DNA of 64,000 nucleotides from Dehalococcoidia bacterium. GTDB taxonomy: Bacteria > Chloroflexota > Dehalococcoidia > SZUA-161 > SpSt-899. This document shows, one piece after another, positions 17,921-40,453 of the stretch. The translations under genes and the position numbers were made by a program. Each line of letters starts with the position of its first letter. The first letter of the stretch is position 1. The DNA lies in assembly GCA_028711995.1 (NCBI GenBank), contig JAQTRE010000002.1:1704-65703 (forward strand), written 5' to 3'. The notes under the pieces are model-generated. The model saw only the letters and a list, made by a program, of their open reading frames with translations, had not been told where the DNA came from and did no database searches.

Positions 17921-17967
17921 TGAAGCAGTGTTTGGCTTTTTCAATTCTGTTTCTCAGGGAGGGAAAA

Positions 17968-24125: not shown

Positions 24126-24413
24126 ATGCATCTAGCGATTCAATTACTGATTCAATTAACGATACTTATAGTTGCCATTGTCATAGCCAGTTTGATTTTG
24201 CGCTGGATGACGAGCAATCCCGAAAAGCTCAAAGCCATATGGAGGCGCACTAAGAGATTTTGGGTAACACCCTTGATATACCTAAGGGCATTTCGAGCCT
24301 ATGTTAACTGGAAAAGGGTGGGGATGGGTTTCAGCCTTCGGGATTGTATGTGCCAGGAATGGGAGAAATATGATAAGGAACATTATCCCGATCAACCCTA
24401 CTATCGACTGTGA
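24126..24413 (+). CDS. Small hypothetical membrane protein (95 aa) in the 1-kb divergent promoter region. Speculative.
   Basis: One N-terminal TM helix and a weak RBS (aggaa), with no family match. Confidence 0.25.
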   Translation: MHLAIQLLIQLTILIVAIVIASLILRWMTSNPEKLKAIWRRTKRFWVTPLIYLRAFRAYVNWKRVGMGFSLRDCMCQEWEKYDKEHYPDQPYYRL

Positions 24414-24544
24414 AGAATAGTGAACTTGTAGCTGTTGTGTGATGGGAATAGAAGCATCAATGGAAACAAAGTTGGTACAAAAACGAAGGGCCGCTTCTGA
24501 GCAGTTTGGGTGATCTTCCATGAAGTTACCATAGGAGGAATTAA

Positions 24545-26164
24545 GTGAAAATGGTGGATAAGGTAGGCATGATAAAACTCAGTTTTCAATGGAAGCTGCT
24601 GTCTGTGGGATTGATGAGCATGGTTGCATTTGTGGTATTGTTGCTGGTCGGCGCCGTTCCCGACACAGCTAAGACCACTCTTATGACCATTGGCGGTGCT
24701 TTGGCTGCTGTGTCTCTGATTGCTCTGGTTATTCTCTCGCAATATGCGGGCAAGAATATTAAAGAGTTGGCCAAAACTGCCGATAGGATCAGCCATGGAG
24801 AGTTGGGTTTCAACATTGATCTCAAGTCCAAGGATGAAATAGGAGACCTAGCCACCTCACTGCGGAGTGCCGCCGTATATTTCAAGGAGTTGGCTTCCAC
24901 GGCTGAGAAGGTGGAGGCAGGGGATCTATCTCTGTCATTCACGGCGAAATCCGAGAGAGACGTCCTCGGTAATGCCTTTGCAAACCTGACCAAGTGCTTC
25001 AAAGACATCATCGGCAAAGTGGCCGGTGATGCCAAAGAGATGGATTTAGCTAGTGACCAACTCGCCGCATCGGCCACTCAGGCAGATTCCGCAACGCAAC
25101 AGGTTGCCAGCACCAGTCAGCAGATGGCGAAAGGTGCCAGCGATCAGGCCGCGAGTTGTCAGGAAACAGCCAAGGCGGTAGGTCAATTGACTGAAGTTGT
25201 TGCCCAGATTGCCAAGGGCGCTCAGGAACAGGCCGAGGGAGTCCATAAAGCGACTTCATCCATAGCGGAACTGTCCTCCGGGGCAGATCAGGTAGCGAAG
25301 AATGCCCTTGCTGCTGCCGGGGGATCCAAAGCAGCAACGGAGGCTGCCAACAAGGGTGCGGAACAGGCCAAACAGGCAGTCGAAGGGATGAAACGAGTCA
25401 GAAACAGTGTGGAAGCAGCCTCGCAGAAGGTTTCCGATCTGGGGCAGAAGTCCGAGGCGATCGGCAAAATTGTAGCGGTGATCGATGATATTGCCGCCCA
25501 GACCAATCTTCTGGCGCTGAATGCCGCCATCGAGGCGGCTCGGGCCGGAGAACATGGGCGGGGATTTGCGGTTGTGTCCGATGAAGTCAGGAAGCTGGCA
25601 GAGCGGACGGCCCAGGCCACCAAGGAGATTGCCGATCTCATCAGCAACGTGCAAAAGGGTGTGGGAGAGGCAGTGAAAGCGATGCAAGAGGGGACCAATG
25701 AGGTGAACGGAGGGTACAAACTGACCAGCGAGGCGGGCGAATCTCTGGAAGATATTCTGAAAGCGTCGACGGAAGTCAGTGTGCAAATCGAACAGATATC
25801 GGCTGCGGCCCAGCAGATGAGCGCCTCTGCCAATGAGATGGTAACCATCATCGATAGTGTTGGGAGCGTTACGGAAGAGAACACGGCAGCGGCCGAAGAG
25901 ATGTCCGCGAATGCGCAGCAGGTGAGCAATTTGATCGAAACAGTCGCCGGGGTGGCAGAGGAGAACAGCGCCGCAACCCAGCAGGTGTCGGCTTCCGCCG
26001 AAGAGATGAGTGCTCAGATGCAGGAAGTGGTGGCCTCATCCCAGTCGCTGAAGCAAATGGCTGAAGCGTTCATGATATTGATGTCCCTTTTCGGGAGCAC
26101 TGATGATGAGGGCGACTCACAGGAGACCGAACCTGAGCGTGACAAAGTGCTGGTTGGAGCCTAA
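24545..26164 (+). CDS. Methyl-accepting chemotaxis protein (539 aa: two TM helices with a minimal loop, HAMP, MA signalling domain)
   Basis: The highly conserved MCP signature …[39 protein letters not shown]… is present. Confidence 0.9.
25050..26075 (+). repeat. Paralogous repeat: the MCP1 signalling-domain coding DNA is highly similar to 27625-28655 in MCP2
   Basis: Long stretches are near-identical by eye. For example, 25441-25640 versus 28020-28220 differ only by scattered third-position changes, as do 25790-26070 versus 28370-28650. Confidence 0.8.
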
Positions 26165-26266
26165 GAGAAAGTGCGGAGGGGAGAGGATTGGGGAATGACT
26201 ATGAGTCAGGAGATTGTCCTTACTGCTTATTGCCATTGACCCCAGTATCACCCAAAAGGAGGGCAG

Positions 26267-28741
26267 GTGGGAAAGTTAATTAATCTGAAATGGCGGCCGA
26301 AATTGGGCGCTAAGCTGCAAAGGTTGACAACGCTTAACCTCGGACCGAAGTTGCTTATCGGTTTCCTGGTGGTTGTAGCCATGACCGGGGCTACGGGTTT
26401 TATCGGCATGCGGGGGATTTCTGGTGTAGCTGATGCTTCGCAAAGTGCCGATGAGGCCAATCTGACCGTGCAAAAGGTGCTGGAAATCAGGCAAGCGGAA
26501 AGGGAGTATGTGCAAACTGGGGATGATCGCTATCTTGTCCGGATTGATGCCATATTGGCTGACGCGAAGAATCTCATCGCAACGATGAAGGAATCGTCTG
26601 GAGGAGAGAACCTCGCCCTTCTCAATGTAATGGAGGCCCAGTTTGATAGCTACAGGCAATCAAAAGATGCCTATGCTGGTCTTATGAGCGCAGGAGCTGC
26701 GAAGCAACTTCAAATGGAAGAGGTGTCTGTTGCCGCCCAAAACGAGGTCAAAGATATGACAGGACAGCTGGAAGCACGGGCGCTTAGCGATGTTACCACG
26801 CTGTCAGTCTTCGTGGAGGGATCGTACGACACCAGTTCAATGGACGCTTCCGGAAAACTCAGCGTGCTAAACAGTGCTAACCGCCTCATGCGAAACATCC
26901 AGTATCTCAGAATGGCCGAGAAAGACTATCTGCTTAGCCATGATAAGAACTATTCTGATGAGTTCATGGTGCAGATATGGACTGCGCAGAGTGTGGTGAA
27001 CTATGATCTCGAGGCGAGCGTTGGCGATCTGATCGATCGGGCGCAAGCAGATGCGATCTTAAAGTCTCTGGATGCATATCAAGCTGCATTTGAGGCATAC
27101 GTCGATTTAGATCAGCAGAAAGAGGCTCAACTCTTGGTGATGATAGAAGCCGGAAATGTATTGATCGGCAGTCCGGATAAAGATAGCCAATACTACGGCG
27201 GGGCAGAATTACTGAAGGCAAAGGCTCAAGACGACTCCGAATCTGCCAAGAGTCTAGCCATCATGATGACATTGGCCTTCATAGGCGGCTCGATAATGAT
27301 AGGTATTGTTCTTGCCATCGTCATTTCCCGCTCAATCACCAAAAAGGTCCGGTTGATAGCGGAGAGGGCGGATGAATTTGCCACCGATCTCGAGGGGCTA
27401 TACGGCACCATGCAATCAGCTGCCCAGGGAGATCTCTCCGAGAAAGTTCGGATCAACACACAGGAGATGCCTATAACCTCGCGTGACGAAATCGGCGTTA
27501 CCATGACGTCTCTGAATAGAATGATTGCCAATTTGCACAACACTGGCGATGCCTTCGAAAACATGATGGTCAATCTGCGAGACTTGATTGCCAAGGTAAC
27601 GGACAACTCGACACAGTTGAATGCAGCCAGCGATCAACTTGCTGCATCGTCAACGCAGGTAGGTTCTGCCACCCAACAGGTGGCCAGCACCAGCCAGCAG
27701 ATGGCCACCGGAGCCAGCGATCAGGCTGCAGCCTGCCAGGAAACGGCCAAGGCAGTAGGGCAACTGACCGAGGTTGTCGCACAGATAGCAAATAGCGCTC
27801 AAAAGCAATCGCAGGGAGTTCAGGCGGCAATCACTTCGATCACCGAGTTGTCAACCGGAGCGGAGCAAGTGGCAAGCAGTGCCGCTTTTGCCGCCAGGAC
27901 GGCAAAAGGTGCGGCCGAAGGAGCGCAGAAATTCACGGAGACGTCAAAGCAGGGGGGAGATCGGATGAAACTGATCATGACCGCGGTCGAAACAGCCTCG
28001 CAGAAGGTTTCCGAACTGGGACAGAAGTCCGAGGCGATCGGCAAGATTGTGGCCGTGATCGATGATATCGCCGCCCAAACCAATCTACTGGCGTTAAATG
28101 CAGCCATCGAGGCGGCGCGGGCAGGAGAACATGGTCGGGGATTTGCGGTGGTATCTGATGAAGTAAGAAAACTGGCAGAGCGGACAGCCCAGGCTACCAA
28201 GGAGATTGCCGAGCTGATCAGCTATGCGCAAAGGGGTGTGGCAGAGGCAGTAAAGGCGATGGAAGAAGGCCGGAAAGAGATGAAGGGTAACTATAAAGGG
28301 ATCGCCGAATCCAAAGCATCCCTTCAGACTGTCCTGAATGCAAACTCGGAGCTTGGTGTGCAGATCGAACAGATATCGGCCGCGGCCCAGCAGATGAGCG
28401 CCTCTGCCAATGAAATGGTAACCATCATCGATAGTGTGGGGAAGGTTACGAAAGAGAATACCGCGGCGGCCGAAGAGATGTCGGCCAATGCTCAGCAGGT
28501 GAGCAATCTGATCGAAACAGTTGCCGGAGTGGCTGAGGAGAACAGTGCCGCGACCCAGGAAGTATCGGCTTCCGCCGAAGAGATGAGCGCCCAAATGCAG
28601 GAAGTGGTAGCGTCATCCCAATCACTGAAGCTAATGGCTGAGGAACTCCTGACGAAGGTCTCCGTTTTCAAAACGGGCGGCAACAGATATAGCGATCAGG
28701 GAAATGAGCTTGATCGTGAGAAGGTGTTGGTTAATAGCTAA
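26267..28741 (+). CDS. Methyl-accepting chemotaxis protein (824 aa: ~290-aa periplasmic helical sensor domain, TM, HAMP, MA domain)
   Basis: It has the same MCP signature, and its cytoplasmic domain is near-identical to the upstream MCP. Confidence 0.9.
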
Positions 28742-28859
28742 AGATGATGTGAAGGAAGAGGGACTAAGGAAAAACTCTTTCCCCCCAACTGGGCAGAAAC
28801 TTTGTGATAGCCAATAGAGCGGTGAGTTGACCGGGTGAAACAAGTGGAGGGCAATTGAT

Positions 28860-29363
28860 ATGAGCAGCGATGCAGGGAAGAAGCAGGCTGAGAGACAACT
28901 GGTGATCTTCAGCCTGGCCAATGAATCCTACGGGGTGGATATCGGCACGGTGAATGAAATCATCCGCATACAGGAGATATCAAGGGTGCCCAGAACTCCG
29001 GCATACGTGCAGGGAGTGATCAATCTCAGGGGCAGGGTTATCCCGGTGGTTGACTTGCACAAGGTTTTCGATTTTGCCGACAGAGAGACAACAAAAGAGA
29101 GCCGCATTATCGTGGTGGATATTCTGGAACAACAAGTGGGCATAATGGTTGACGCGGTGACGGAGGTGTTACGCATCTCTGCCGATTCTGTCGAGCCTCC
29201 CTCGTCGATGATTGCTACGGGTGATTCGGATTATCTGCTGGGGATAGCCAAAGTCGGACAGAGGCTGATCACTCTTTTGGACCTGGCAAAGGTGTTCACA
29301 AGAGATCAGGCTGAGAAGCTTGAAGAAGTGGAACTTGCTGCGATCGGCGCCGCCGCAGGGTGA
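28860..29363 (+). CDS. cheW: Chemotaxis coupling protein CheW
   Basis: 167 aa with a CheW-like fold (…FSLANESYGVDIGTVNEIIRI…VINLRGRVIPVVDL…). Confidence 0.9.
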   Translation: MSSDAGKKQAERQLVIFSLANESYGVDIGTVNEIIRIQEISRVPRTPAYVQGVINLRGRVIPVVDLHKVFDFADRETTKESRIIVVDILEQQVGIMVDAVTEVLRISADSVEPPSSMIATGDSDYLLGIAKVGQRLITLLDLAKVFTRDQAEKLEEVELAAIGAAAG

Positions 29364-29543
29364 AACGGCTACGCAGAATTCTAGAGGCCATGCATTGAGA
29401 GAAAGGGGCCTATCTGGTTATCGATAACCATCGATAAGGAAGGAACCCTGAGAATTGCCGAAAAACCGGTCACTGGATTATTGATCGGCTTGAAGCAATG
29501 GTGAATCGTAATCCCTCACTATCGCTTTGTGAGGAGGCTGGGA

Positions 29544-29933
29544 ATGAATCGGAAAGTATTGGTAGTTGACGATGACCCAACTATGCTCAAGACTGTGAAG
29601 GCAATCCTGAGCAGTAATGGCTTTGCGGTGACCACTGCCGCGGGGGGGCAACAGTGTCTTGCGGAGCTGAAAATGGGGTTCAAAGGGGTAATCCTTATGG
29701 ATGTAATGATGCCTGATATGGATGGGTGGGCCACTATCAGAGAGATCGTCAACCGTGGACTTCTGGAGGGAAATGTGATCACCATGTTGACTGCAAAACA
29801 TACTCCAGATACAGAGATGGAAGAGCTTGCCGAGTGCGTTCTGAACTACATCAGAAAGCCGTTTGAACTCCGCGAACTCAATTCAGTTGTGGAGGAATGC
29901 AGTTCTTATTTGGAATCACTGGAGAGTATTTAA
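29544..29933 (+). CDS. Stand-alone response-regulator receiver domain. It looks like the REC half of a split CheB. The start is at MNRKVLVVDDDP; the track ORF begins at 29529.
   Basis: The REC acid pocket DDD is present, along with the phospho-acceptor Asp in the LMDVMMP context and the K near the C-terminus. Its C-terminus overlaps the following methylesterase ORF in another frame. Confidence 0.75.
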   Translation: MNRKVLVVDDDPTMLKTVKAILSSNGFAVTTAAGGQQCLAELKMGFKGVILMDVMMPDMDGWATIREIVNRGLLEGNVITMLTAKHTPDTEMEELAECVLNYIRKPFELRELNSVVEECSSYLESLESI

Positions 29934-29965
29934 CCGGCCGCCTGCTGGCTGATCTAGGAGCAGAA

Positions 29966-30565
29966 GTGGAGTTTTCAAAAAACATCATCATAATCGGTTC
30001 TTCTAGCGGGGGACCTCTGACTTTGAGGAGGGTGTTGGCCAAGTTGCCGGTGCTCGATGCTTCCATCCTCATTGTTCAGCACATGCCCAAGTTTATCAAT
30101 GACACCATCAGAGAGTCTCTGTCACGAATGACGGATATGCGTGTCAGATTAGCAGAGGACAGGGCCATGTTGGAAGACGGGAAAGTCTTTGTCGCTCCCA
30201 GCGAAGTGCATATGGAGATAGAGGATAACCGAAGGATCAGGCTGCGTCAAAGCGAAAGGGTCAACTTTGTGTGCCCGTCGATAGACGTTACGATGCAGTC
30301 TATCAGACACGAACCTGGGTTGTCCACTGTCGGCGTCATTCTAACCGGCATAGGTCGAGATGGAGCACAGGGAATCAGCCATATCAAATGTTTGGGAGGC
30401 ACAACCATCGCACAGGATAGCAGGACATGCGTCGTATACGGTATGCCCAAGGCAGCCGTTGAGACCGGTAACGTGGACTTTGTGCTGACTCCTGAAGAGA
30501 TACGGGAGAAACTTATTGAGCTGGTAAAAGGATCAAGGGGGAAAAATGGTAACGTTAGCAGCTGA
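29966..30565 (+). CDS. CheB-type methylesterase catalytic domain only. A GTG start with an RBS is proposed; the track ORF begins at 29897 and overlaps the REC gene.
   Basis: IIIIGSSSGGPLTLRRVLAKLP…ILIVQHMP… is the CheB_methylest signature with the catalytic Ser-His-Asp. It is in a different frame from the upstream REC ORF. Confidence 0.7.
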   Translation: MEFSKNIIIIGSSSGGPLTLRRVLAKLPVLDASILIVQHMPKFINDTIRESLSRMTDMRVRLAEDRAMLEDGKVFVAPSEVHMEIEDNRRIRLRQSERVNFVCPSIDVTMQSIRHEPGLSTVGVILTGIGRDGAQGISHIKCLGGTTIAQDSRTCVVYGMPKAAVETGNVDFVLTPEEIREKLIELVKGSRGKNGNVSS

Positions 30566-32675
30566 TGTGACACCGGAAGAATTGCAGGTGTTTCTGCAAG
30601 ACACAGATGAACAATTGCAGGTCCTGGATGAAGATATCATCAAGCTGGAGAATGAAGGGGATAACCCGGAGGTGTTGCAGGAGATTTTCCGCGCCGCTCA
30701 TACGATAAAGGGATCCTCCGCCATGGTCGGTTATCACAAGATGGCCGATCTGACTCATGCCATGGAGAGCATACTGGACAAGCTGAGGAAAGGCACGCTA
30801 TCGGTCAATACCCAGATAGCCAATGCTCTTTTGCATAGCCTGGATAGTCTCCGAGTGCTGCGGAATAATCTGACCGCTAAGAAGGAAGAGAATATTGACG
30901 TCGATTCTGTCATTGCGACACTAAAAGAGCTCACCAGCGCTGAAGCGAAGCTCGCACAGGCCGGGAAGTCGGATCAGGAGACGCCCACAGCGGTGAGGAT
31001 ATCCCTGGATAAGAGTGAGTATAAGCGACTTCAGGAATCGCTGGCCTTGAGCCACAGGGTACATCAGATAGAGATGGCAATCAGCAAGGAAAGCCAATGG
31101 GCGGCGGTTCGCTGTCTTCAAGCATTAAACGAGCTGGATGAAAAAGGAATCGTCATTGCATCTAAGCCCTCCCGGAAAGAGATTGAGGCTGAGAAAGTGG
31201 AATCTCAGTTGATATTGATCTTTGCCGGATTGCTGGAGGAAGAAGAAATAAGAGCGCTGCTCTGCACAATATCCGATGTGGAGAATGTAAGAGTTGGTTT
31301 CTACGATCCTGGCGAAGACGGCTGCCCAGGTGAAAAAGCTGTGGAGGATGGGGCCCTTAACGCATTTGATGTAGAGAAGACCGTCAAAACTGATCGCCCG
31401 GCACAATCCCAGTCTTCGGGCGCTCCAGCCGAACGGGCTCCGGTTGAAGCCATTAAAGCAGCTGAGACGGTTCGGATTGATGTGGAACGGCTGGATAGCC
31501 TGATGAACATGATCGGCGAGTTGGTAGTTGCCCGAACCAGGATGAACCAGATCAGCCGGTCGCTGGACCTCAAATATAGAGAGGATGAAGATGTGGTGGC
31601 TCTGAGCAAGACCTTCACCCAGGTCACCAAAGTCATCGATCAGCTTCAACTGGATATCACCGTTGCTCGCATGCTGCCGGTAGGAACAGTGTTCAATCGC
31701 TTCCCTAGGATGGTCAGAGACCTGGCCCAAAAGATGGGGAAAAAGGTTGATTTCATCATCACGGGTCAGGAGACGGGGATTGACCGTTCGGTGATAGAGC
31801 ATATCCGCGACCCGTTGGTGCATTTACTGAGGAATTCGGTCGATCATGGCATCGAGACTTCGGAAAAGCGCGAGGCTGCTGGGAAGCCGGAAAAGGCAAC
31901 CGTTCGGCTTTCAGCAGCTCATGAACAAAATTTCATCATGATCACCGTAGAGGATGACGGCAAGGGAATCGATGGAGCGGTGATCAAAGAGGTTGCTCTC
32001 AAAAAAGGCCTGATAACCGCTGAGGCCGCATCGAGGATGAGTGATGCCGAGGCCATCGATCTCATCTTCGCATCCGGAGTATCAACCGTTGAAAAGGCCA
32101 CCGATGTATCCGGCAGGGGAGTGGGAATGGATATCGTGCGCAAGAATATTGAAGCGTTCAACGGCGTCATTTCTGTGGAGACGAAAGTGGGCCAGGGCAC
32201 CAAGTTTGTATTGAGGTTACCGCTTACCCTGGCAACCATTAATGCGCTGCTGGTTTCCTCTGGCAATACGATTTATGCCATTCCTCTGGTCACCATCAGC
32301 GAAACACTGAGACTCAGCCCGAAAGATATTAAGACGGCTGCTCAAAGGGAGGTGTTCAGCCTCAGGGACAGAGTGGTGCCGTTAATTAGACTGAACGAGG
32401 TATTTGATACGGATATAGAGGAATCCACTGACGCGGAAATGGTTCACATCGTTGTGGCCCGCGTCGGCGAGCGAATGGTGGGACTTTCAGTGGATTCTTT
32501 GATAGAGCCTCAGGAAGTGGTGGTAAAGTCTATGGGCAGCTTCATCGGCAACGTCCACGGCATAGCCGGAGCCACCATTCTTGGCAGCGGAGAAGTGGCA
32601 CTGATATTGGATGTGCCCAGTTTGATAAAGTCTTGCAGCGAATCGATGAAGTTTGGCGGGCAATCCATGAACTAG
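30546..32675 (+). CDS. cheA: Chemotaxis histidine kinase CheA (709 aa: Hpt, dimerisation, HATPase and CheW-like domains)
   Basis: The Hpt phosphorylation site is AAHTIKGSSAMVGY, the HATPase_c G-boxes are present (…GRGVGMDIV…), and the C-terminal CheW-like domain is intact. Confidence 0.9.
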   Translation: MVTLAADVTPEELQVFLQDTDEQLQVLDEDIIKLENEGDNPEVLQEIFRAAHTIKGSSAMVGYHKMADLTHAMESILDKLRKGTLSVNTQIANALLHSLDSLRVLRNNLTAKKEENIDVDSVIATLKELTSAEAKLAQAGKSDQETPTAVRISLDKSEYKRLQESLALSHRVHQIEMAISKESQWAAVRCLQALNELDEKGIVIASKPSRKEIEAEKVESQLILIFAGLLEEEEIRALLCTISDVENVRVGFYDPGEDGCPGEKAVEDGALNAFDVEKTVKTDRPAQSQSSGAPAERAPVEAIKAAETVRIDVERLDSLMNMIGELVVARTRMNQISRSLDLKYREDEDVVALSKTFTQVTKVIDQLQLDITVARMLPVGTVFNRFPRMVRDLAQKMGKKVDFIITGQETGIDRSVIEHIRDPLVHLLRNSVDHGIETSEKREAAGKPEKATVRLSAAHEQNFIMITVEDDGKGIDGAVIKEVALKKGLITAEAASRMSDAEAIDLIFASGVSTVEKATDVSGRGVGMDIVRKNIEAFNGVISVETKVGQGTKFVLRLPLTLATINALLVSSGNTIYAIPLVTISETLRLSPKDIKTAAQREVFSLRDRVVPLIRLNEVFDTDIEESTDAEMVHIVVARVGERMVGLSVDSLIEPQEVVVKSMGSFIGNVHGIAGATILGSGEVALILDVPSLIKSCSESMKFGGQSMN

Positions 32676-32745
32676 CAACGAGAAAAGGCAAGACAGAAGA
32701 CCTGGTAGATATTGATTATGCGCGAACACAGGCACTAATAGGAGG

Positions 32746-33393
32746 GTGAAATTGGAGAAAAGCAGCAAATCAGGACTCAAGGAGATTGATGTAGGGAAAT
32801 GGGCGGAACTCGTCGGGCAAGGAACTCAGAATGCGGTCCATGGCCTATCTGGAATGGTCGGGGTGGAGATTAAGACCGTTGCCCTTGATCTTAAAGTAAT
32901 CCCGGCAGCGAAAGCGGCAGATCTGGTTGGCGGGCCGGAGAATGAAGTGGCATCCATCTATTTGATGATCACCGGCGCAGCAACGGGTCATATTATGCTG
33001 ATCTATTCAAAGGAAGTGGCCTTTGGCCTGGTGGATATGCTGATGGGACAGCAGGTCGGAACCACCAAGGAATTGGGTGAGATGGAATCCTCTGCCCTGG
33101 GTGAGATGGGCAATATCACGGGGTCATTTTTCCTCAATTCAGTAGCCGATAACACCGGTCTGCGTCTGATGCCTTCGATACCAACGGTGATGATCGACAT
33201 GGCCGGATCGATCCTTGATTCAGCCGTAGCCGATGTCCTGCAGGATCATGATGAATTATTCGCCATGGAAGCCATCTTTGCCGTTGGAAATCAAGAGATC
33301 AGCGGAACACTCCTGGTTTTACCAACTGCGGAGTTTATGGAGGTTATGGTAGAGCATAGCAAACTGATCCCTAAGAAGGGGGCACAGTGCTAA
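32746..33393 (+). CDS. cheC: CheY-P phosphatase CheC (the start may be the TTG at ~32752)
   Basis: Two CheC-type repeats with E/N-containing active-site helices (…SALGEMGNITGSFFLNSVAD…). Confidence 0.8.
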   Translation: MKLEKSSKSGLKEIDVGKWAELVGQGTQNAVHGLSGMVGVEIKTVALDLKVIPAAKAADLVGGPENEVASIYLMITGAATGHIMLIYSKEVAFGLVDMLMGQQVGTTKELGEMESSALGEMGNITGSFFLNSVADNTGLRLMPSIPTVMIDMAGSILDSAVADVLQDHDELFAMEAIFAVGNQEISGTLLVLPTAEFMEVMVEHSKLIPKKGAQC

Positions 33394-33881
33394 CACTAAC
33401 TCAAGAAAGCACGGTCGTGGTGAGTTTGGGAGAGATCAAGTTGTCTAAGGATCCGCAAACAGTTTTGACGTGTCTGGGCTTGGGGTCGTGTATCGGCCTT
33501 TGTATGTATGACCCTATTGCCGGTGTGGGAGGAATGGCGCACATTGTTCTGCCATTCAGCAACAATGGGGCTGCGGGCAATGCGAAATTCGCCGATATTG
33601 CCATTCCCCAGCTACTTCAAGCAATGAGAGAACATAATGCCGTGAGATCTCGCCTGATCACAAAACTCGCCGGTGGCGCGCAGATGATCAAGCCGGGAAC
33701 GGCGGATAATTTCAATACGGGGCAGAGGAATATCGAGGCGGTCAAACAGATATTGGCAGACGAGGCCATCAGGGTTTCGGCCGCCGAGGTAGGCGGATCT
33801 CGTGGACGTTCACTTAAGTTATTCGTGGGGACTGGCAAGGTGATGGTGAAATCAGTGGGTTCAACAGATGTGGCACTGTAG
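33387..33881 (+). CDS. cheD: Chemoreceptor glutamine deamidase CheD
   Basis: 164 aa containing …LGLGSCIGLCMYD…, the CheD catalytic Cys region. It overlaps the cheC stop, which is typical of cheC-cheD pairs. Confidence 0.85.
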   Translation: MLTLTQESTVVVSLGEIKLSKDPQTVLTCLGLGSCIGLCMYDPIAGVGGMAHIVLPFSNNGAAGNAKFADIAIPQLLQAMREHNAVRSRLITKLAGGAQMIKPGTADNFNTGQRNIEAVKQILADEAIRVSAAEVGGSRGRSLKLFVGTGKVMVKSVGSTDVAL

Positions 33882-33908
33882 GCCCGAAGAAGGAAACAAG
33901 GAGAATAA

Positions 33909-34268
33909 ATGATGGCGAAAATATTAGTTGTAGATGATGCCCCCTTCATGCGCATGAGGGCCAGTAAATTATTGAGCGAGAATGGATTCCAGGTGATCGA
34001 GGCCGGAAACGGCGCCGAAGCGGTGAAGAAGTACAAAGATGAAAAGCCCGATGCGGTGATGATGGATATCACCATGCCTGAGATGGATGGGTTGCAGGCG
34101 TTGAAGGAGATGAGAAAGCTGGACCCGAATGCTAAGGTGTGCATGGTCACGGCCATGGGACAACAATCTATTGTGTTGGAAGCCATAAGCGCCGGAGCTA
34201 AGGACTTTGTGGTGAAGCCCTTTGATGCCAACCGGGTTCTGGCGACGGTTCAAAAGATGGTGAGCTAG
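33909..34268 (+). CDS. cheY: Chemotaxis response regulator CheY
   Basis: 119 aa single-REC protein with VVDDAPFMR, the phospho-acceptor Asp in the MMDITMPEMDG context, and the K at the KPF motif. Confidence 0.9.
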   Translation: MMAKILVVDDAPFMRMRASKLLSENGFQVIEAGNGAEAVKKYKDEKPDAVMMDITMPEMDGLQALKEMRKLDPNAKVCMVTAMGQQSIVLEAISAGAKDFVVKPFDANRVLATVQKMVS

Positions 34269-34391
34269 GAAACCTGTGATTAAGTGGTGCAGAACACCTC
34301 CTGCCGGGAATCCGGGGGTGCCCAACACTTGATGGCGCTTGCCTAGGGAAGCGCCATCAACACACAGGAATTCTGAAGAAAGGAACCTGCC

Positions 34392-35471
34392 ATGAGCAAT
34401 AGCATTAGCGTGCTGATAGTGGATGATTCTGCCTTTGCCAGGTTTGCTATTTCCAAGCAGATTGGCGCTCATCCGGAGATGAAGGTCATAGGTACTGCTC
34501 GCGATGGGATTGATGCCCTGGAGAAAATCAAGCAATTGAAACCGGATGTGGTGACACTCGATGTGGAAATGCCGAAGATGGATGGCTTGGCGGTACTCAA
34601 ACATGTCATGTCAGAGTATCCCACACCGGTGATCATGCTCAGCAGTCTGACCAGTGAGGGTGCGGAGACAACACTGAAGGCGCTGGATATGGGAGCTGTT
34701 GATTTCTTCCTTAAGCCTTCCTCGGCGGCACCGGCAGGGCTATCGCCCGAAATGGTGAACGATTTGGTAACCAAAATAAGGATGGCTGCCAAAACCGATG
34801 TGTCACGCATGAAGACGATTGCCACCGTCCCGAGAAAAAGTCAGGCGATGGAGAAGAAAGCACGCAAACCTCGTGCCAGTATACAGAATAAAGTGATCGT
34901 TCTCGGGTGCTCAACCGGAGGCCCGCGAGCATTGCACAGGGTGATTCCTTCGCTGCCCGGAGATTTGCCAGCAGCCATGCTGGTAGTGCAACATATGCCG
35001 CCGGGATTCACCAAGTCATTGGCCAATAGGCTGAACGACTTGTCGGAGGTGGAAGTCCGAGAGGCTCAGGAGGGAGATGCCCTCAAGCCCGGTCTGGTAT
35101 TACTAGCTCCCGGCGGCAGCCATATGACGGTGAATGAAGGTGGCCGGGTGAGCCTCAATCAGGGCCCGATGGAGTGTGGGCTGCGGCCTGCAGCCAATGT
35201 GACCATGGAGTCGGTGGCTAAGGCTTATCAAAAGACTGCTCTCGGTGTAGTGCTCACCGGCATGGGAAATGATGGTACCAGGGGGGCGGGTCTCATTAAA
35301 AAGTTCGGCGGTGAAGTGGTGGTGGAGGACGAATCTACCTGTGTGGTCTACGGAATGCCCAAAAGCATTGTTGATGCCGGGTATGCCGACAGAGTTTTGC
35401 CATTATCGCAGATAGCAGGTGAGATCACCAAAAGATGCCATGTAAATCTCGAAATGGCCCTTGAGGTATGA
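34392..35471 (+). CDS. cheB: Protein-glutamate methylesterase CheB (intact REC + methylesterase, 359 aa)
   Basis: An N-terminal REC (LIVDDSAF…LDVEMPKMDG) is followed by a methylesterase domain (…VIVLGCSTGGPRAL…LVVQHMP…). Confidence 0.9.
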   Translation: MSNSISVLIVDDSAFARFAISKQIGAHPEMKVIGTARDGIDALEKIKQLKPDVVTLDVEMPKMDGLAVLKHVMSEYPTPVIMLSSLTSEGAETTLKALDMGAVDFFLKPSSAAPAGLSPEMVNDLVTKIRMAAKTDVSRMKTIATVPRKSQAMEKKARKPRASIQNKVIVLGCSTGGPRALHRVIPSLPGDLPAAMLVVQHMPPGFTKSLANRLNDLSEVEVREAQEGDALKPGLVLLAPGGSHMTVNEGGRVSLNQGPMECGLRPAANVTMESVAKAYQKTALGVVLTGMGNDGTRGAGLIKKFGGEVVVEDESTCVVYGMPKSIVDAGYADRVLPLSQIAGEITKRCHVNLEMALEV

Positions 35472-35474
35472 ACT

Positions 35475-36311
35475 ATGGATGATGTGGAATACGGTTATCT
35501 GAAAAAGAAAGTGCTGGATCTGATTGATATCGATCTGGATAGCTATAAGGAAAAACAGATGCGTCGGCGGTTGGCCGGATTTCTGGAGCGATCCGGTGCC
35601 CCCAACCCCGCAGCCTACGTCAGCCGCGTCGAGCAGGATCAGCGGATGTTGGATGAATTACGGGATTTCCTGACGATAAACGTGTCCTCATTCTTCCGTG
35701 ACGAAACGCAGTTTGAGAAGCTCCAGACAACGATACTGCCTGAATTGCTGGGCCACAGCCACCGTCTCAATATCTGGAGTGCCGGCTGTTCCAATGGCTC
35801 TGAGCCCTATACAATGGCCATGATTCTAGGCGAACTCGCTGCCAAGCAGGAACACCGGATACTCGCTACGGATATAGATAAGACCATCATCGCGCGGGCG
35901 CAAGGCGGTGGGCCTTACACCGCAGCTGACGTTAAAACCGTGCCGCCAAACCTTCGGGACAGATACTTCAAGGAATCGGCAGGCGCCTATTGGGTGGTTG
36001 ATAGTATCAAGAAGAAGGTAGAGTTCAGGCAACATAACTTGCTGGCCGATCCATATGAAAATGGTTTCGACCTAATTCTGTGCCGCAATGTGATGATCTA
36101 TTTTACAGACGGAGCCAAGGATAAGATCATCACGCGATTCTCGAACTCACTGAAAGATCAAGGAGTTCTGTTCCTCGGAGGGAGCGAAATCGTCTTCCGC
36201 CCGGCAGAGATGGGGCTTAAGACTTTGTCCCCCTCCCTCTATCGTAAGACAATGATCTCTGGCAGCACTGGTGGCCAGTCTTTCTGGGGGCAGAAAACCT
36301 TTAAAGAATAA
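35475..36311 (+). CDS. cheR: Chemotaxis protein methyltransferase CheR
   Basis: A CheR N-terminal helical domain is followed by a SAM-MTase domain (…TINVSSFFRD…NIWSAGCSNGSEPYTMAMIL…). Confidence 0.9.
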   Translation: MDDVEYGYLKKKVLDLIDIDLDSYKEKQMRRRLAGFLERSGAPNPAAYVSRVEQDQRMLDELRDFLTINVSSFFRDETQFEKLQTTILPELLGHSHRLNIWSAGCSNGSEPYTMAMILGELAAKQEHRILATDIDKTIIARAQGGGPYTAADVKTVPPNLRDRYFKESAGAYWVVDSIKKKVEFRQHNLLADPYENGFDLILCRNVMIYFTDGAKDKIITRFSNSLKDQGVLFLGGSEIVFRPAEMGLKTLSPSLYRKTMISGSTGGQSFWGQKTFKE

Positions 36312-36334
36312 TGGCTCAATAAGGGGAAAATATC

Positions 36335-37435
36335 ATGCGTCGCATATCGGTTAAATACGCTCAACCCGAAATGGAGCTGGCAAAGCCTCTTTTTGATAAA
36401 TGGGGCAATATGCTGTTACCCATTGGCGCCAAACTGACGGAACGACAGCTGCGGTTATTGCCGAACAAGGGTGTAAGGGAATTATCCATTGAAGACTCGC
36501 GAGTCGATGATGTGCTTTGGGACCCACTTATAAAGCCGGAGACGCAGCAAGAAGCAGTCAAGGCAATCAGCGATCTGTTGACCATAAACCAGAAGGGTGG
36601 AGGGATCAAAAGTCCCAAGGACCCGAGAATGGTCTCCGCTCGACTGAACATCGAGAAAATGAGCTATATGATCACGCAAGAGGTTTTGACATCAGTTATG
36701 GGGGAGCCGGATCTCTCTGGCTGTCAATCCATCGAAGATTATCATTGCATTCAACCTGTGCAATCTACCATCCTGGCAGTGATGCTGGCAAAGGAGGCCG
36801 GCTTCAACGAAGGGGATATGCTGAGCGTGGCCAAAGCCGCCATGCTGCAGAACATTGGTTATACCTTTCTGCCTCAGGAGATATTGAGAAAAGAAACGGA
36901 GCTATCACCAGAGGAGACTCTGGAATTTGAAAAACATCCCATATATGGTGCTGAAATCCTCCGTCAGACCGGCCAGACTTCTCCTCAGATCATCGAAGCA
37001 GTACTGCAACATGAGGAACGGTGGAACGGGAGTGGTTATCCTAACAAGATAAGGGGCTGGGATATATCCCCATTTGCCCAGATTATAGGGATTGCACATA
37101 CCTACTACGATCTTGTGTCGGCGAGACCATGGAGGGAGCCATTCAAGCAAATGGATGCGTTTGAGTACATCATGGCATACGGGGGAGAGCTTTTCGATCC
37201 GGAATGGGTGCAGGTCTTCTCGCGTCGCGTTCCCATCTACCCCAGCGGGGTGAAGGTGAAATTGAGCACAGGGGAGATCGGAATCATTTCTGATGCCAAC
37301 CTCGGACATATCGGCAGACCGATGGTGCGGATCATCTCTGATAGTAAAGGCAATGATGTCAGCCGCCCATACGATATGGACCTCTCGAAGCCAAGTTATC
37401 AGGATCGACTGGTTATAGAACTCTTAGAGATTTGA
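36335..37435 (+). CDS. DUF3391-like N-terminal domain + HD-GYP-like domain with a degenerate HD dyad (366 aa), paralog 1
   Basis: The N-terminus MRRISVKYAQPEMELAKPLFDKWGNMLLPIGAKLTERQL fits the DUF3391 pattern that commonly precedes HD-GYP domains. The core has …YHCIQPVQSTILAVMLAKEAG… and KAAMLQNIGY where active enzymes have AALLHDIGK. The GYP motif is retained (HEERWNGSGYP). A C-terminal extension of about 100 aa follows. Confidence 0.7.
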   Translation: MRRISVKYAQPEMELAKPLFDKWGNMLLPIGAKLTERQLRLLPNKGVRELSIEDSRVDDVLWDPLIKPETQQEAVKAISDLLTINQKGGGIKSPKDPRMVSARLNIEKMSYMITQEVLTSVMGEPDLSGCQSIEDYHCIQPVQSTILAVMLAKEAGFNEGDMLSVAKAAMLQNIGYTFLPQEILRKETELSPEETLEFEKHPIYGAEILRQTGQTSPQIIEAVLQHEERWNGSGYPNKIRGWDISPFAQIIGIAHTYYDLVSARPWREPFKQMDAFEYIMAYGGELFDPEWVQVFSRRVPIYPSGVKVKLSTGEIGIISDANLGHIGRPMVRIISDSKGNDVSRPYDMDLSKPSYQDRLVIELLEI

Positions 37436-37455
37436 TTGTGGAGCGACATTAAGCG

Positions 37456-37899
37456 ATGACCAAGGGAGTGATTTCACCCGCAAAAACAGAGATCCGGAGA
37501 GCAACGGTACTGGTTGTAGATGATGCTCGCTTTCAGCGCATGAGGTCCGTCAGATTGCTGACCGAAAACGGGTTCCATGTAGTTGAGGCATTGAATGGCA
37601 TCGAAGCCATCAAGCGGTACAAAGAGGAAAAACCTGATGCAGTGATCATGGATATTACCATGCCCGAGATGGATGGATTGGCGACCCTGAAGGAGTTGAT
37701 TAAACTGGATACCGATGCCAAGGTGTGCATTGTCACCGCGATGGGCCAACAGTCCATAGTCATGGAGGCTATCCATGCTGGTGCCAAGGATTTTGTGGTA
37801 AAACCCTGTAGTGATGATCGGGTTCTGGCGGCGGTCAGGAAAATGATCGGCCAGGGTGAACTTCTTCAAAAGGGACAGGTGCAAGCCGCGCAGGAATAA
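37456..37899 (+). CDS. CheY-like single-domain response regulator (147 aa), paralog of cheY at 33909
   Basis: The REC domain is near-identical to CheY over its C-terminal two thirds (…DAVIMDITMPEMDGL…KVCIVTAMGQQSIV…AGAKDFVVKP…). Confidence 0.85.
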   Translation: MTKGVISPAKTEIRRATVLVVDDARFQRMRSVRLLTENGFHVVEALNGIEAIKRYKEEKPDAVIMDITMPEMDGLATLKELIKLDTDAKVCIVTAMGQQSIVMEAIHAGAKDFVVKPCSDDRVLAAVRKMIGQGELLQKGQVQAAQE

Positions 37900-37949
37900 C
37901 GAGTGGATAAGTTTCACCAGTAGGATAAAAAGGGATAAGGAAAGACACC

Positions 37950-39056
37950 ATGCGACGCATATCTGTTGAACACGCAAGACCAGGGATGCAACTGAGCAGC
38001 CCGGTCTTTGACAAATATGGGGACATGCTTTTGCCTGCAGGCACGGAGCTGGTGGACAACTACCTGAAGTCTCTGCAGAACAACGGAGTCTGGGAGCTTC
38101 TGATTGAGGACCCGCGAGTCAGCGATCTGACCATCAAGCCTCTGGTAAAGCTGGACATGCAGAAAGAGGCGGTCGAGGCAATGCGCCGATTGATCAACAT
38201 CAATAAGAACAAAAAAGGTGACCGAAGGAAGAATCTGGATGACGATGATATGTTCGCATCGAGGCTGGAAGTAGAGCGATTGACCTATGCCATAGTCCAG
38301 GCGATCCTTATCTCGCCTTTGGGCGAGCCGGACAGCTCAGGGTGTTTACTGGTGGAGGACTTCCATTATGTCCAACCGGTGCAGAGTACTACCCTGGCCA
38401 TTTTGTTGGCGAGGGAGGTCGGTTTGAGCAATACGGCTTTGCTCAATGTGGGAAAAGCAGCCATGCTGCAGAATATCGGCTATATCTGGCTGTCCTCTCC
38501 GCTGTGGGAAAAGAGGACTCCTCTGACTCAGGCGGAAAATACGGAGTTCGAGAAACATCCCCTATACGGAGCTGAGATTCTCGGCCAGTATGAACGCGTT
38601 CCTCCGGCAGTGGTTGAAGCCGTGGCTCAGCATCACGAGCGGTTTGATGGTACAGGTTATCCCAATGGTGTAAAGGGATGGGATGTATCGCCTCTGGCGC
38701 AGCTCATCAGCATAGCCGAGACCTATTATGGGCTTGTTTCCGCCCGGCCAGGGAAAAAACCTATTATGCCAGCGGATGCTTTTGACTATATTATGGCGGA
38801 GGGAGGGCGGATGTTTGACCCGGAGTTGGTAAAGGTATTTGCCAGAAGGGTTCCTATCTATCCCAGTGGTGTGATGGTTAAGTTAAATTCAGGGGAGACC
38901 GGCATCGTTACTAATGTTAATCTGGGACACATTGGCAGACCAGTGGTACGTGTTGTTAAGGATACCAACGGTAAAGACGTGAATCCCCCTATTGATATGG
39001 ACCTCACCACGCCCGTGTATCAGAGCAAGAAAATAACGGAGTTGCTGGAAATATAA
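37950..39056 (+). CDS. DUF3391-like + degenerate HD-GYP-like protein (368 aa), paralog 2
   Basis: It has the same architecture as 36335-37435 and the same substitution KAAMLQNIGY in place of the HD motif, followed by HHERFDGTGYP. The C-terminal extension is conserved. Confidence 0.7.
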   Translation: MRRISVEHARPGMQLSSPVFDKYGDMLLPAGTELVDNYLKSLQNNGVWELLIEDPRVSDLTIKPLVKLDMQKEAVEAMRRLININKNKKGDRRKNLDDDDMFASRLEVERLTYAIVQAILISPLGEPDSSGCLLVEDFHYVQPVQSTTLAILLAREVGLSNTALLNVGKAAMLQNIGYIWLSSPLWEKRTPLTQAENTEFEKHPLYGAEILGQYERVPPAVVEAVAQHHERFDGTGYPNGVKGWDVSPLAQLISIAETYYGLVSARPGKKPIMPADAFDYIMAEGGRMFDPELVKVFARRVPIYPSGVMVKLNSGETGIVTNVNLGHIGRPVVRVVKDTNGKDVNPPIDMDLTTPVYQSKKITELLEI

Positions 39057-39072
39057 CTTTGGGGAATAAACT

Positions 39073-39939
39073 ATGGCCGATGAAGTACTTTCGCAAGCTC
39101 AAATAGATGCCCTGATATCAAGAAGTGCCTCCCAGAAGGGGGCCGACATGTCTCCTGAGATAGAGGCTCTGCTGACGAAGGGCAGTGAAGCTCCCAGTGA
39201 AGGACTGTTTGCCAAAAGGATAGCCGGAAAGCTGGCCCAAAGTGAAGGCTCTAGCGCGGGTGTTCCTGAAAAGGGCCCAGCCGTTGCGGCACCCCCCGCA
39301 CCGAACACGTCCCCTGATAAAGGCGCTTCAAGTCAGCACGGCACGGCATCGGCTGCAAAGCCCGGTCCAAATGTGGCTCCAAATGCTGCATCGTCTAGCC
39401 CCTCGGGTGAAGTAGCGGCGACGAAAGCAGCGCCAAGGCAGATTGAACCGATGGGATCACCTAGGGCAAAAGGCCCTGGCAATGTTGGATCGGGGCAGGT
39501 GATGGCGAATTCAGATACGGAGAAGGCCATAAAGGCTTTGCAATCAGCAACAGATGCTCTGGCAAGGCGTATGGAGAAAGTTGAGTCCATCGCCGCGCGA
39601 GTGAGTCCTCTGGAAAGCGCTGTGGCCAATGGTGCTCAGCAGCCATCGCAACGGCCCGGACAAGACTCGGCAAAGGTTCGGCAAATGGAGATGGAAATAA
39701 AGAGCCTCAGATCGGAAATCCAAAAGATCACGGCGAGTATGCAGAACATCATGAATGTAACCAGGCAAAAGGAGAGCCAGATGAAGACCATCAACAAGGG
39801 GCTTCACAACAGTTTTGGTTACAATATTCGTGAAACTTTTGAATGCGAACATTGCGGTTCTCAGGGGCATGTTGTGGGACTGGTCAAATGCAGCCGGTGT
39901 GATGAAGAGAGTTGGTGGGGATGGTGGCCTCAGGAGTGA
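39073..39939 (+). CDS. Hypothetical protein (288 aa): N-terminal FliM-like CheY-P-binding peptide, Ala/Pro/Ser-rich disordered linker, coiled coil, C-terminal CxxC-x13-CxxC zinc ribbon
   Basis: The N-terminus MADEVLSQAQIDALISR matches the LSQxxIDALL CheY-docking motif of FliM/FliY N-termini. Residues 40-150 are of low complexity. Heptad-like segments are visible (…KSLRSEIQKITASMQNIM…). The C-terminus reads CEHCGSQGHVVGLVKCSRCDEESWWGWW. Confidence 0.55.
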   Translation: MADEVLSQAQIDALISRSASQKGADMSPEIEALLTKGSEAPSEGLFAKRIAGKLAQSEGSSAGVPEKGPAVAAPPAPNTSPDKGASSQHGTASAAKPGPNVAPNAASSSPSGEVAATKAAPRQIEPMGSPRAKGPGNVGSGQVMANSDTEKAIKALQSATDALARRMEKVESIAARVSPLESAVANGAQQPSQRPGQDSAKVRQMEMEIKSLRSEIQKITASMQNIMNVTRQKESQMKTINKGLHNSFGYNIRETFECEHCGSQGHVVGLVKCSRCDEESWWGWWPQE

Positions 39940-40453
39940 TATTTTCTATCGATCGATCTGCTGCTCTTGTTCACTAGATGAGGCGGTAAATCAAGACTTA
40001 TCTCTACAGAAACACAGAAACAATCGCTTGTTTCGGATGTGTCTTTCAATCGGGTCGCCATGAGGGTAGACTCCAATTGGTCGACGGACCGCGTGACTTT
40101 CCCACCGAGAGTTATCAGCGCCAGCCCACTTGAGTTATCCGCTCTCCGGGAAACCACTCGCAAGAACTGCATTCTGCCCATCTTATCCTTCGACGCATGG
40201 TTTCCAATCGCTGCCTCGTCAACCCCCTGTTTCTACCCCTCACAGGCATGGCAAGTATGAAATTGAGACATGGTAGAACCCCTTCCTGAGGCGAGTTTGA
40301 TCTCCCCGTTGTCAGAAATCGGTTCATATGTTAAACTAGACGGCGGTGAATAGCGCGGTAGCTGAATGATGCTGGTATCGAAACAGCCCAATCGCGTGAG
40401 TATCGCTATCAGACGCTTGGTGCGTCGCGAATGAAGGAGGGTATAATTTAGAT

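Follow-up and report, generated by a model that had tools for sequence, protein, structure and literature searches.

Which motor, if any, does a bacterial chemotaxis operon steer when no motor genes are found around it? This question is raised by a 64-kb stretch of DNA from a Dehalococcoidia bacterium of the phylum Chloroflexota (assembly GCA_028711995.1, contig JAQTRE010000002.1), which we call the window. At positions 24545-39939 the window holds a cluster of fifteen co-directional open reading frames (ORFs), packed on the + strand and delimited by ORF calls and Pfam domain assignment. The cluster encodes a complete set of chemotaxis (che) proteins, two degenerate proteins of the HD-GYP type (collectively HD*, individually HD-A and HD-B) and, at its 3' end, a protein of 288 aa that we call X. 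We compared the cluster with related loci, which carry labels of the form L005. We consider it moderately probable that this is an F1-type che operon whose conserved 3' tail, made of HD* and X, is the output end of the pathway and acts on an archaellum motor. A narrower proposal is put forward more tentatively, namely that X, probably with its degenerate HD-GYP neighbour, is a functional replacement for CheF, the archaeal adaptor between CheY and the archaellum.

Archaella in bacteria were first demonstrated in 2025 (PMC12488501). Complete archaellum loci, acquired from Methanotecta, are present in many Chloroflexota, Dehalococcoidia among them, and one species uses its archaella for swimming (Sivabalasarma et al., PMC12488501). 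CheF is absent from Chloroflexota, and another protein component has been postulated (PMC12488501). A preprint of May 2026 reported F1 chemosensory systems in 58 of 226 archaellated Chloroflexota, classed the archaellum-associated chemosensory systems of this phylum mostly as F1 and named no adaptor (bioRxiv 10.64898/2026.05.11.724246). Neither of these two works names the link between the F1 system and the archaellum. Both systems are reported for Ca. Lucifugimonas marina, an organism in culture. Our literature search found no publication that joins archaellum, Chloroflexota and FliM.

Protein X and its FliM-type peptide

Protein X (39073-39939, starting MADEVLSQAQIDALI) is identical to the NCBI entry MDD5092905.1 / PHV74_00785, a ‘hypothetical protein’ encoded on a 90-kb contig of a Dehalococcoidia metagenome-assembled genome (MAG), and matches no Pfam or NCBIfam family. 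An LSQxEIDAL peptide at the N-terminus is followed by a disordered linker and a coiled coil, and at the C-terminus there is a zinc ribbon that ends in WWGWWP. An AlphaFold2 model of low confidence (pLDDT, the predicted score of the local distance difference test, 55.7) has a helix at residues 8-21, disorder over about 110 residues (37-144), helices at 146-185 and 195-248, and four short strands within 255-281.

A putative docking peptide for phosphorylated CheY (CheY-P) was located by motif and N-terminal profile at residues 5-14 (VLSQAQIDAL; 39085-39114, + strand). Residues L6, S7, Q8, I11 and D12 are invariant among close homologues, and the family consensus of the peptide reads L-S-Q-A-(E/D)-I-D-A-(L/M). 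The ‘EIDALL’ motif is the docking site of CheY-P on the flagellar switch (PMC9126983). A profile of X N-termini (22 columns, 39 proteins) was compared with 177,635 distinct PDB sequences; the top match was FliM residues 3-19 (E=4e-4), which bears out an initial annotation of this DNA that had spoken of a FliM-peptide protein. The third-ranked match was the Thermotoga maritima FliM peptide from the CheY complex 4IGA.

The motif is present in 85 of 134 full-length representatives of the X family. Another 24 have other N-termini, several of which are near-variants of the motif, and the remaining 25 have a transmembrane helix in its place. Judged by their sequences, the members of this last kind are a membrane-anchored paralogue of X, which keeps the coiled coil and the zinc-ribbon/WWGWWP tail and often has an acidic tail added. 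The zinc-ribbon-like tail itself (residues 256-286; 39838-39930, + strand) was defined from the family alignment as F-x-C-x2-C-G ... C-x2-C ... WWGWWP. It begins F-x-C-x2-C-G-S, and residues C258, C261, C273, C276, W281, G283, W285 and P286 are invariant in 43 sequences.

With respect to family size, 486 out of 1.84 billion cluster representatives matched at E<=1e-3 in a full HMMER scan, and 303 did so at E<=1e-10. Every named member comes from Chloroflexota or Dehalococcoidia and is annotated either as hypothetical or under a spurious name. Word-indexed searches, in which low-complexity words crowd the candidates, undercounted the family (4 homologues with a single sequence, 16 with a 43-sequence profile).

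How does X compare with the known partners of CheY-P? As in FliM and FliY, the LSQxEIDAL peptide stands at residues ~5-15 and is followed by a flexible linker. In contrast to these proteins, X has neither a FliM middle domain nor a FliN/SpoA domain (Pfam, even at E<=10 among the families listed); the model shows a coiled coil and a small beta ribbon, and the neighbouring genes in relatives are those of the archaellum rather than the flagellum. CheF, which binds ArlCDE, resembles X in the role proposed here, that of a non-enzymatic CheY-P receiver at the archaellum motor, and its gene, too, is found with che and/or arl genes. CheF forms a dimer, and X has a long coiled coil. The two proteins have no sequence relation: Pfam and NCBIfam scans found no CheF domain in X, and the predicted architecture differs too. 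CheF (DUF439) has two PH domains and a C-terminal tail that binds CheY-P in a way unlike the FliM N-terminus (PMC9126983), whereas X combines a peptide of the FliM type at its N-terminus with a disordered linker, a coiled coil and a zinc ribbon.

The coiled coil of the X family (residues 146-248 in the window) gave a sub-threshold match to Pfam DUF7310, a ‘coiled-coil region of unknown function’ (30.1 bits vs. a cutoff of 40 in L006, 11111-11914). The membrane-anchored paralogue gave a sub-threshold match to Pfam FlaC_arch (23 bits vs. 27.8). A relation of X to archaeal FlaC/ArlC was considered and set aside as a lead only, both matches being under the gathering scores and of coiled-coil nature. 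They may reflect generic coiled-coil similarity or a faint trace of kinship with archaellum accessory proteins.

The CheY protein of the operon (119 aa; 33909-34268; Pfam receiver domain, REC, E=3.8e-32) has its best PDB matches in the CheY proteins of P. horikoshii and T. maritima (E=1e-39), with about equal overall similarity to both. Along alpha4-beta5-alpha5, the surface that grips the FliM peptide in 4IGA, 19 of 23 residues are identical to T. maritima CheY, and by this comparison the window CheY has a FliM-compatible surface. A FliM-like peptide on X and a CheY resembling the FliM-binding CheY proteins would also suit an operon that drives an ordinary bacterial flagellum encoded elsewhere in the genome. 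X would then be an accessory CheY-P binder that serves as a sink, competes with FliM or, as a scaffold, brings CheY-P to CheC. We regard this as unlikely. A pure sink would need no conserved coiled coil, zinc ribbon and invariant WWGWWP tail, nor a membrane-anchored paralogue, and the genomic surroundings of X, described below, point elsewhere.

Linkage of X to archaellum genes in related loci

Related loci were collected by homologue look-ups, by a scan of species-representative genomes (4-sequence alignment, strict patterns; 6 loci) and by searching metagenome contigs for the pattern [EQ]xWWGWWP (80 loci). The loci were annotated by BLAST against the window Che proteins and against Arl proteins verified by NCBIfam.

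We observed that the gene order MCP-CheW-CheA-CheC-CheD-CheY-CheB-CheR-HD*-X, where MCP stands for methyl-accepting chemotaxis protein, recurs in Chloroflexota loci L005, L006, L007, L022-L026, L030, L062, L063, L071, L073 and L095-L098. It is the standard layout in this part of the phylum. HD* lies directly 5' of X in 49 of the 63 loci that have upstream sequence; in the window the gap between HD-B and X is 16 nt. What had been described as unusual accessory genes is therefore, as regards HD*-X, a conserved tail of the che cluster throughout Chloroflexota. In two loci (L096, 5705-13142; L098, 5604-14106) the series CheW-CheC-CheD-CheY-CheB-CheR-HD*-X has no CheA gene in the cluster.

Among the 14 metagenome loci with 6 kb or more of sequence downstream of X, 10 have archaellum genes adjoining it; among the 17 with 4 kb or more, 11 do. 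Genes of the set arlB/G/F/H/I/J are next to X in L042, L045, L051, L055, L061, L068, L069, L071, L073, L077, L078, L080 and L089, and several arrangements are seen. In L045, L071 and L073 the series ...CheR-HD*-X faces arlJ-I-H-F-G-?-arlB, while in L077, L078, L080 and L089 HD*-X is followed by a two-component regulator set and then by arlB-?-G-F-H-I-J. In L042 and L055 arlH-I-J and two more genes precede HD*-X, with no che genes present. A minimal cheY-X pair abuts the arl operon in L051, L061, L068 and L069, the CheY being 49-58% identical to that of the window. In L010, arlI (NF058587, 661.6 bits vs. an equivalog cutoff of 550) and arlJ run into CheA...CheR-X. The membrane-anchored paralogue of X adjoins arlJ as well (L010, L043 and L088). 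Since the HD*-X genes sit beside archaellum genes in relatives, they are a candidate link between bacterial chemotaxis and an archaeal motor.

On the other hand, X was never found next to fli or flg genes in the ~90 related loci, and no flagellar family is among the 25 commonest Pfam families of 101 unannotated neighbour ORFs; type IV leader peptidases occur twice among these ORFs. Moreover, according to a published report, flagella and archaella exclude each other in Chloroflexota (PMC12488501). These observations speak against the ordinary flagellum as the output. Palmer et al. (PMC10284905) infer bacterial flagella to be an ancestral trait of Dehalococcoidia that disappeared before most orders radiated. 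The ancestral flagella are a plausible source of the FliM-type peptide and of a CheY tuned to it.

Several details of the arl-linked loci should be recorded. Tandem duplicates of arlI are present in L042 (365-4122), L051 (6851-10396), L061 (12640-16146) and L071 (12734-16224). The gene between arlB and arlG, at the position of arlX/arlCDE, codes for a protein of 241-490 aa with no Pfam match (L089, 5648-6661; L078, 4734-5696; L077, 14827-15744; L071, 17974-18699; L045, 9411-10883); this protein is a possible docking partner for X. A protein of 208-276 aa and a TIG/Ig-domain protein of 509-578 aa are conserved directly 3' of arlJ (L042, 5748-8089; L055, 370-2732; L073, 13892-16241). In L073 a PilD-type A24 prepilin peptidase is encoded directly 3' of X, and a PAS-HD-GYP protein is encoded nearby.

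Where does the window stand among these loci? In a neighbour-joining tree of HD* proteins, HD-A and HD-B fall into a subclade with L005, L006/L048 and L018, which is nested among clades holding arl-linked loci; such loci are found in both the sister and the outer clades. Loci L095-L098 share the gene layout of this subclade. In the closest relatives (L005, 9352-10531; L006, 11998-13621; L009, 953-2701; L095-L098) X is followed by a membrane protein of 151-174 aa (typified by one of 161 aa) and by the membrane-anchored paralogue of X. These two genes come after X in L018 and L048 too.

A number of points weigh against an archaellum as the output. The 64-kb window has no arl gene at all, and the window's own subclade (L005, L006/L048, L018, L095-L098) has none at a distance of up to 8-10 kb from X, an absence that favours the flagellar alternative. 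For this subclade the archaellum linkage comes from phylogenetic bracketing, and so does the expectation that this particular genome has an archaellum. A tblastn search of the window found neither the 161-aa membrane protein nor the membrane-anchored paralogue of X. The binding of CheY-P to X is suggested by a motif of 10 residues. An F1 system is present in only 58 of the 226 archaellated Chloroflexota; therefore, the coupling is not obligatory. Finally, basal Dehalococcoidia orders keep bacterial flagella (PMC10284905), and the flagellar alternative would gain weight if the MAG falls into such a basal, flagellated order. Still, the output of the operon is probably not a bacterial flagellum. 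To this extent the initial annotation, which had read the locus as controlling something other than a flagellar motor, stands; the twitching motility that it offered instead is unsupported, and in many relatives the linkage is to the archaellum.

Degenerate HD-GYP proteins

HD-A (366 aa; 36335-37435; Pfam HD_5, E=1.8e-32) and HD-B (368 aa; 37950-39056; HD_5, E=4.7e-29) are 55% identical to each other. Aligned to the tri-iron phosphodiesterase PmGH (4MCW), both have the HD dyad changed to QN and the following K to Y (‘mlQNigy’ opposite ‘pmHDigk’). HD-A has, in addition, HH changed to HE and the distal D changed to H, with GYP kept; HD-B keeps H, HH, GYP and an acidic residue. The motifs of the GYP region are HHERFDGTGYP and HEERWNGSGYP. 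The two proteins thus share the fold and the GYP motif of HD-GYP phosphodiesterases of cyclic di-GMP (c-di-GMP) without the HD dyad and the full set of metal ligands, and, the dyad being lost, they are unlikely to be phosphodiesterases. The replacement [Q/M/E/K]-N ... Y is common to ~70 clusters with 33-86% identity, all from Chloroflexota where named, while the canonical HD...K reappears only in distant DUF3391-type proteins. Such conservation means that the replacement is ancient and selected and does not represent decay.

HD-B is 72% identical to the L005 protein and, by sequence, is the orthologue of the single HD* copy in relatives. HD-A, as well as CheY2 (147 aa; 37456-37899; Pfam REC, E=2.7e-28), which is 72% identical to CheY, look like additions to the cluster. 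Tandem HD* copies are also seen in L006, L077 and L079-L081. In L002/L015 (5360-5683) HD* is cut down to an ORF of 107 aa with the N-terminal domain only, 75% identical to the HD-A N-terminus; it is either a remnant or a stand-alone domain.

The AlphaFold2 model of HD-B (pLDDT 91.5) has an alpha/beta domain at the N-terminus (1-60), then a helical core (68-300), and at the C-terminus a beta domain of five strands (309-366). The top Foldseek matches were PmGH (4MCW), DvhD (9RBZ), Bd1817 (3TM8) and PA4781 (4R8Z). Degenerate HD-GYP proteins with non-catalytic signalling roles include DvhD and P. aeruginosa PA2572, the latter a YN-GYP protein. HD* differs from both in architecture, having a DUF3391-like N-domain and a C-terminal beta domain and no PAS, REC or transmembrane region. 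DvhD, in which SQ stands for HD, binds c-di-GMP without metals and without turnover (PMC13090378). Like DvhD, HD* has the HD-GYP fold with the dyad replaced and GYP kept; unlike DvhD, it retains HH and other His ligands. By analogy, HD-A and HD-B could act as c-di-GMP receptors. The c-di-GMP flagellar brakes YcgR and MotI are a functional analogy only, as possible second-messenger receptors on a rotary motor beside CheY; HD* has no PilZ domain, and the comparison is wholly inferential.

These properties bear on another explanation, in which the output is second-messenger signalling of the alternative cellular functions type. CheY-P or phosphorylated CheY2 would regulate HD-GYP-like proteins that act on c-di-GMP, or on a nucleotide related to it, by binding or by turnover; these could work with the GGDEF/HD-GYP sensor encoded nearby, and X would be a scaffold. 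Two HD-GYP-like genes in the operon, one of them paired with CheY2, agree with this explanation, as do the retained GYP motif, four His and acidic ligand, the canonical sensor gene divergently adjacent to the operon, and DvhD, whose degenerate domain is a proven c-di-GMP receptor (PMC13090378). However, the dyad is replaced in ~70 family members, which makes hydrolysis unlikely, and HD* has neither a REC domain nor a FliM-like peptide. HD*-X also follows arlJ in the two loci without che genes (L042 and L055), which ties the pair to the motor. As the sole output we judge second-messenger signalling improbable; it is compatible with an archaellum output, where c-di-GMP would gate the motor, and does not exclude it. 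A link to c-di-GMP, as suggested in the initial annotation, is plausible but indirect; phosphodiesterase activity fits poorly with proteins that lost the HD dyad.

Gene content and class of the operon

The initial annotation had described a complete core che set on one strand over 15 kb, and the fifteen genes agree with it. The genes for cheA, cheW, cheY, cheB, cheR, cheC and cheD are all in one cluster, each of the seven assigned by Pfam. The first gene, MCP1 (539 aa; 24545-26164; Pfam MCPsignal, E=2e-48, and HAMP), can be aligned with TM1143 and PcaY over their cytoplasmic domains, with one 7-residue gap for the former (2CH7) and nearly gapless for the latter (6S18); these PDB alignments fix no heptad class. 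MCP2 (824 aa; 26267-28741; MCPsignal, E=3.3e-41) has HAMP and the MCP signalling domain after an N-terminal sensor region of ~350 aa that received no domain assignment. CheW (28860-29363; Pfam CheW, E=1.5e-39) comes next.

CheA (30546-32675) has the classical P1-P5 architecture (Pfam Hpt, P2, H-kinase_dim, HATPase_c and CheW) with one Hpt, P2 present and no REC. It is followed by a CheC-type CheY-P phosphatase (32746-33393; Pfam CheC/CheX; NCBIfam CheC_Thtogales, E=1.7e-27, under its cutoff) and by CheD (33387-33881; Pfam CheD, E=4.9e-28). After CheY come the full-length CheB (34392-35471), with REC and methylesterase domains by Pfam, and CheR (35475-36311; Pfam CheR and CheR_N).

Based on gene content and CheA architecture, this is an F1-type, CheC/CheD-containing operon. 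The F1 class belongs to the Wuichet and Zhulin scheme of chemosensory systems. The window shares CheA P1-P5, CheW, CheY, CheB, CheR, CheC and CheD with the F1 systems of Bacillus, Thermotoga and archaea, and its gene order agrees with that of the arl-adjacent Chloroflexota loci. It differs in the conserved HD*-X tail, the split CheB pair and the CheY2/HD* duplication. The description of the gene set as Bacillus-type was sound in the sense of a CheC/CheD-containing set of Bacillus/archaeal type, the host being a member of Chloroflexota and not a Firmicute, and, as to the F class named there, the gene set and the P1-P5 architecture of CheA point to F1. The che cluster is a known kind of system, and the archaellum association of such systems in Chloroflexota is already published. 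The novelty lies in the conserved, unannotated output module, above all in X with its transplanted FliM peptide.

A REC-only protein (134 aa; 29529-29933; Pfam Response_reg, E=2.8e-22) and a CheB catalytic domain alone (222 aa; 29897-30565; CheB_methylest, E=3.1e-55) are encoded in different frames with an overlap of 37 nt. Both were noted in the initial annotation together with the second CheY and the HD-GYP-like proteins, and all were found in place by Pfam. The receiver keeps D14/D15, D58, T87 and K110; the catalytic domain keeps the Ser/His/Asp triad and is 38% identical to that of the full CheB. In L096 a matching REC and CheB_methylest pair is present as separate genes (2483-2884 and 2924-3535). 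A frameshifted CheB pseudogene was rejected, as the second frame opens only 30 nt ahead of its ATG. A pseudogene or an assembly frameshift is ruled out too by the intact triad, the identity of only 38% and the two-gene arrangement in L096. By these sequence features the pair is a genuine split CheB, which presumably adds a second activity, for demethylation or deamidation, under a control of its own. Lacking a receiver, such a CheB would be active constitutively unless it is regulated in trans by the separate REC.

Several genes of the cluster overlap, and the gaps between cheB and X are 3-50 nt. A terminator scan found no convincing +-strand terminator-like site within the cluster except one inside MCP2; the promoter and terminator scan of the window gave counts at or under shuffle expectation. 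A single operon for the whole cluster is plausible. X is followed by a gap of 514 nt and an acetyl-CoA synthetase gene. The operon (24001-40000) shows a coding-strand purine excess, with GC skew from +0.12 to +0.20 and AT skew from +0.08 to +0.15 in 2-kb windows, above the rest of the 64 kb.

Neighbourhood of the operon

Divergent from the operon and separated from it by 1 kb is a gene for a 1476-aa sensor (19087-23517, - strand) with the domain order dCache-HAMP-GAF-PAS-GAF-PAS-GGDEF-HD-GYP. Its GGDEF domain is canonical, and so are the HD-GYP motifs, HDIGK / HHHEWYDGSGYP; by these predicted activities the sensor shows that the organism uses c-di-GMP. An ORF of 95 aa with an N-terminal hydrophobic helix (24126-24413) lies within the 1-kb gap. 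Further upstream is a true ATPase of the PilT/PilU family (17920-19059; TIGR01420, 419.9 bits vs. a cutoff of 319.1), and the stop codon of a 190-aa ORF of no family (17348-17920) overlaps the pilT start. Apart from these genes, the 64 kb carry housekeeping functions (jag, yidC, gyrB, metG, pfk, trmD and others). No fli, flg, mot, arl or pilus-assembly genes are present in the window, where pilT is the sole pil gene. The neighbourhood was thus as the initial annotation had it, with a divergent sensor 1 kb away, pilT 5.5 kb upstream of the operon and no flagellar neighbours.

The inference drawn there from pilT, i.e., that the system steers twitching motility by type IV pili, did not hold up. 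The presence of a bona fide PilT/PilU-family ATPase at this distance and the occurrence of type IVa pilus systems in some Chloroflexota (PMC12488501) are in its favour. However, no PilT-like protein was the best match in any of the ~90 related loci, so the adjacency is peculiar to the window, and the 4.4-kb sensor gene stands between pilT and the operon. The chemosensory proteins differ from those of type IV pilus (Pil-Chp) systems as well. These have a ChpA-type CheA with multiple Hpt domains and a C-terminal REC, as well as PilG, PilH and PilJ and a linkage to pil genes; the window CheA has a single Hpt, P2 and no REC, and no PilG/H/I/J-type genes are found in the window. We consider control of twitching very unlikely.

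Proposed mechanism and implications

The favoured reading, an F1 operon with an output on the archaellum, suggests the following sequence of events. The MCPs would control CheA, which would phosphorylate CheY and CheY2. CheY-P would use its alpha4-beta5-alpha5 face to dock on X, at the N-terminal LSQxEIDAL peptide of the FliM type, and the coiled coil would dimerise X. We infer that X is located at the motor; the coiled coil and the zinc-ribbon/WWGWWP tail, probably with HD*, would hold it at the horizontally acquired archaellum's cytoplasmic face. Occupancy by CheY-P would then alter rotation, by switching or by stopping. In this way X would serve CheY in bacteria as the adaptor CheF serves it in archaea. 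Signal termination and adaptation would be the task of CheC, CheD, CheB and CheR together with the split CheB pair.

The role of HD* is drawn from its sequence and model: most likely it is a regulatory subunit without catalytic activity, and it may be a c-di-GMP receptor gating the same motor. In this capacity HD* may report on the c-di-GMP that enzymes such as the GGDEF/HD-GYP sensor encoded nearby produce or break down. In evolutionary terms, chemotaxis would have been rewired after the swap of flagellum for archaellum: the peptide on which CheY docks in FliM would have been joined to a new protein with a coiled coil and a zinc ribbon.

The literature states as an open question what takes the place of CheF in bacteria, and X is a specific, testable candidate. 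It is a small protein, encoded between che and arl genes in many Chloroflexota, and the FliM-type CheY-binding peptide is its only recognisable functional element. Should the proposal be wrong, the window would still be a record of an ordinary F1 che operon whose tail is conserved and uncharacterised. If it is true, X would be a second, independent solution to the coupling of CheY to the archaellum, and HD* might reveal c-di-GMP control of an archaellum. It would also make plain how, after a transfer between domains of life, a foreign motor becomes connected to an existing signalling pathway.

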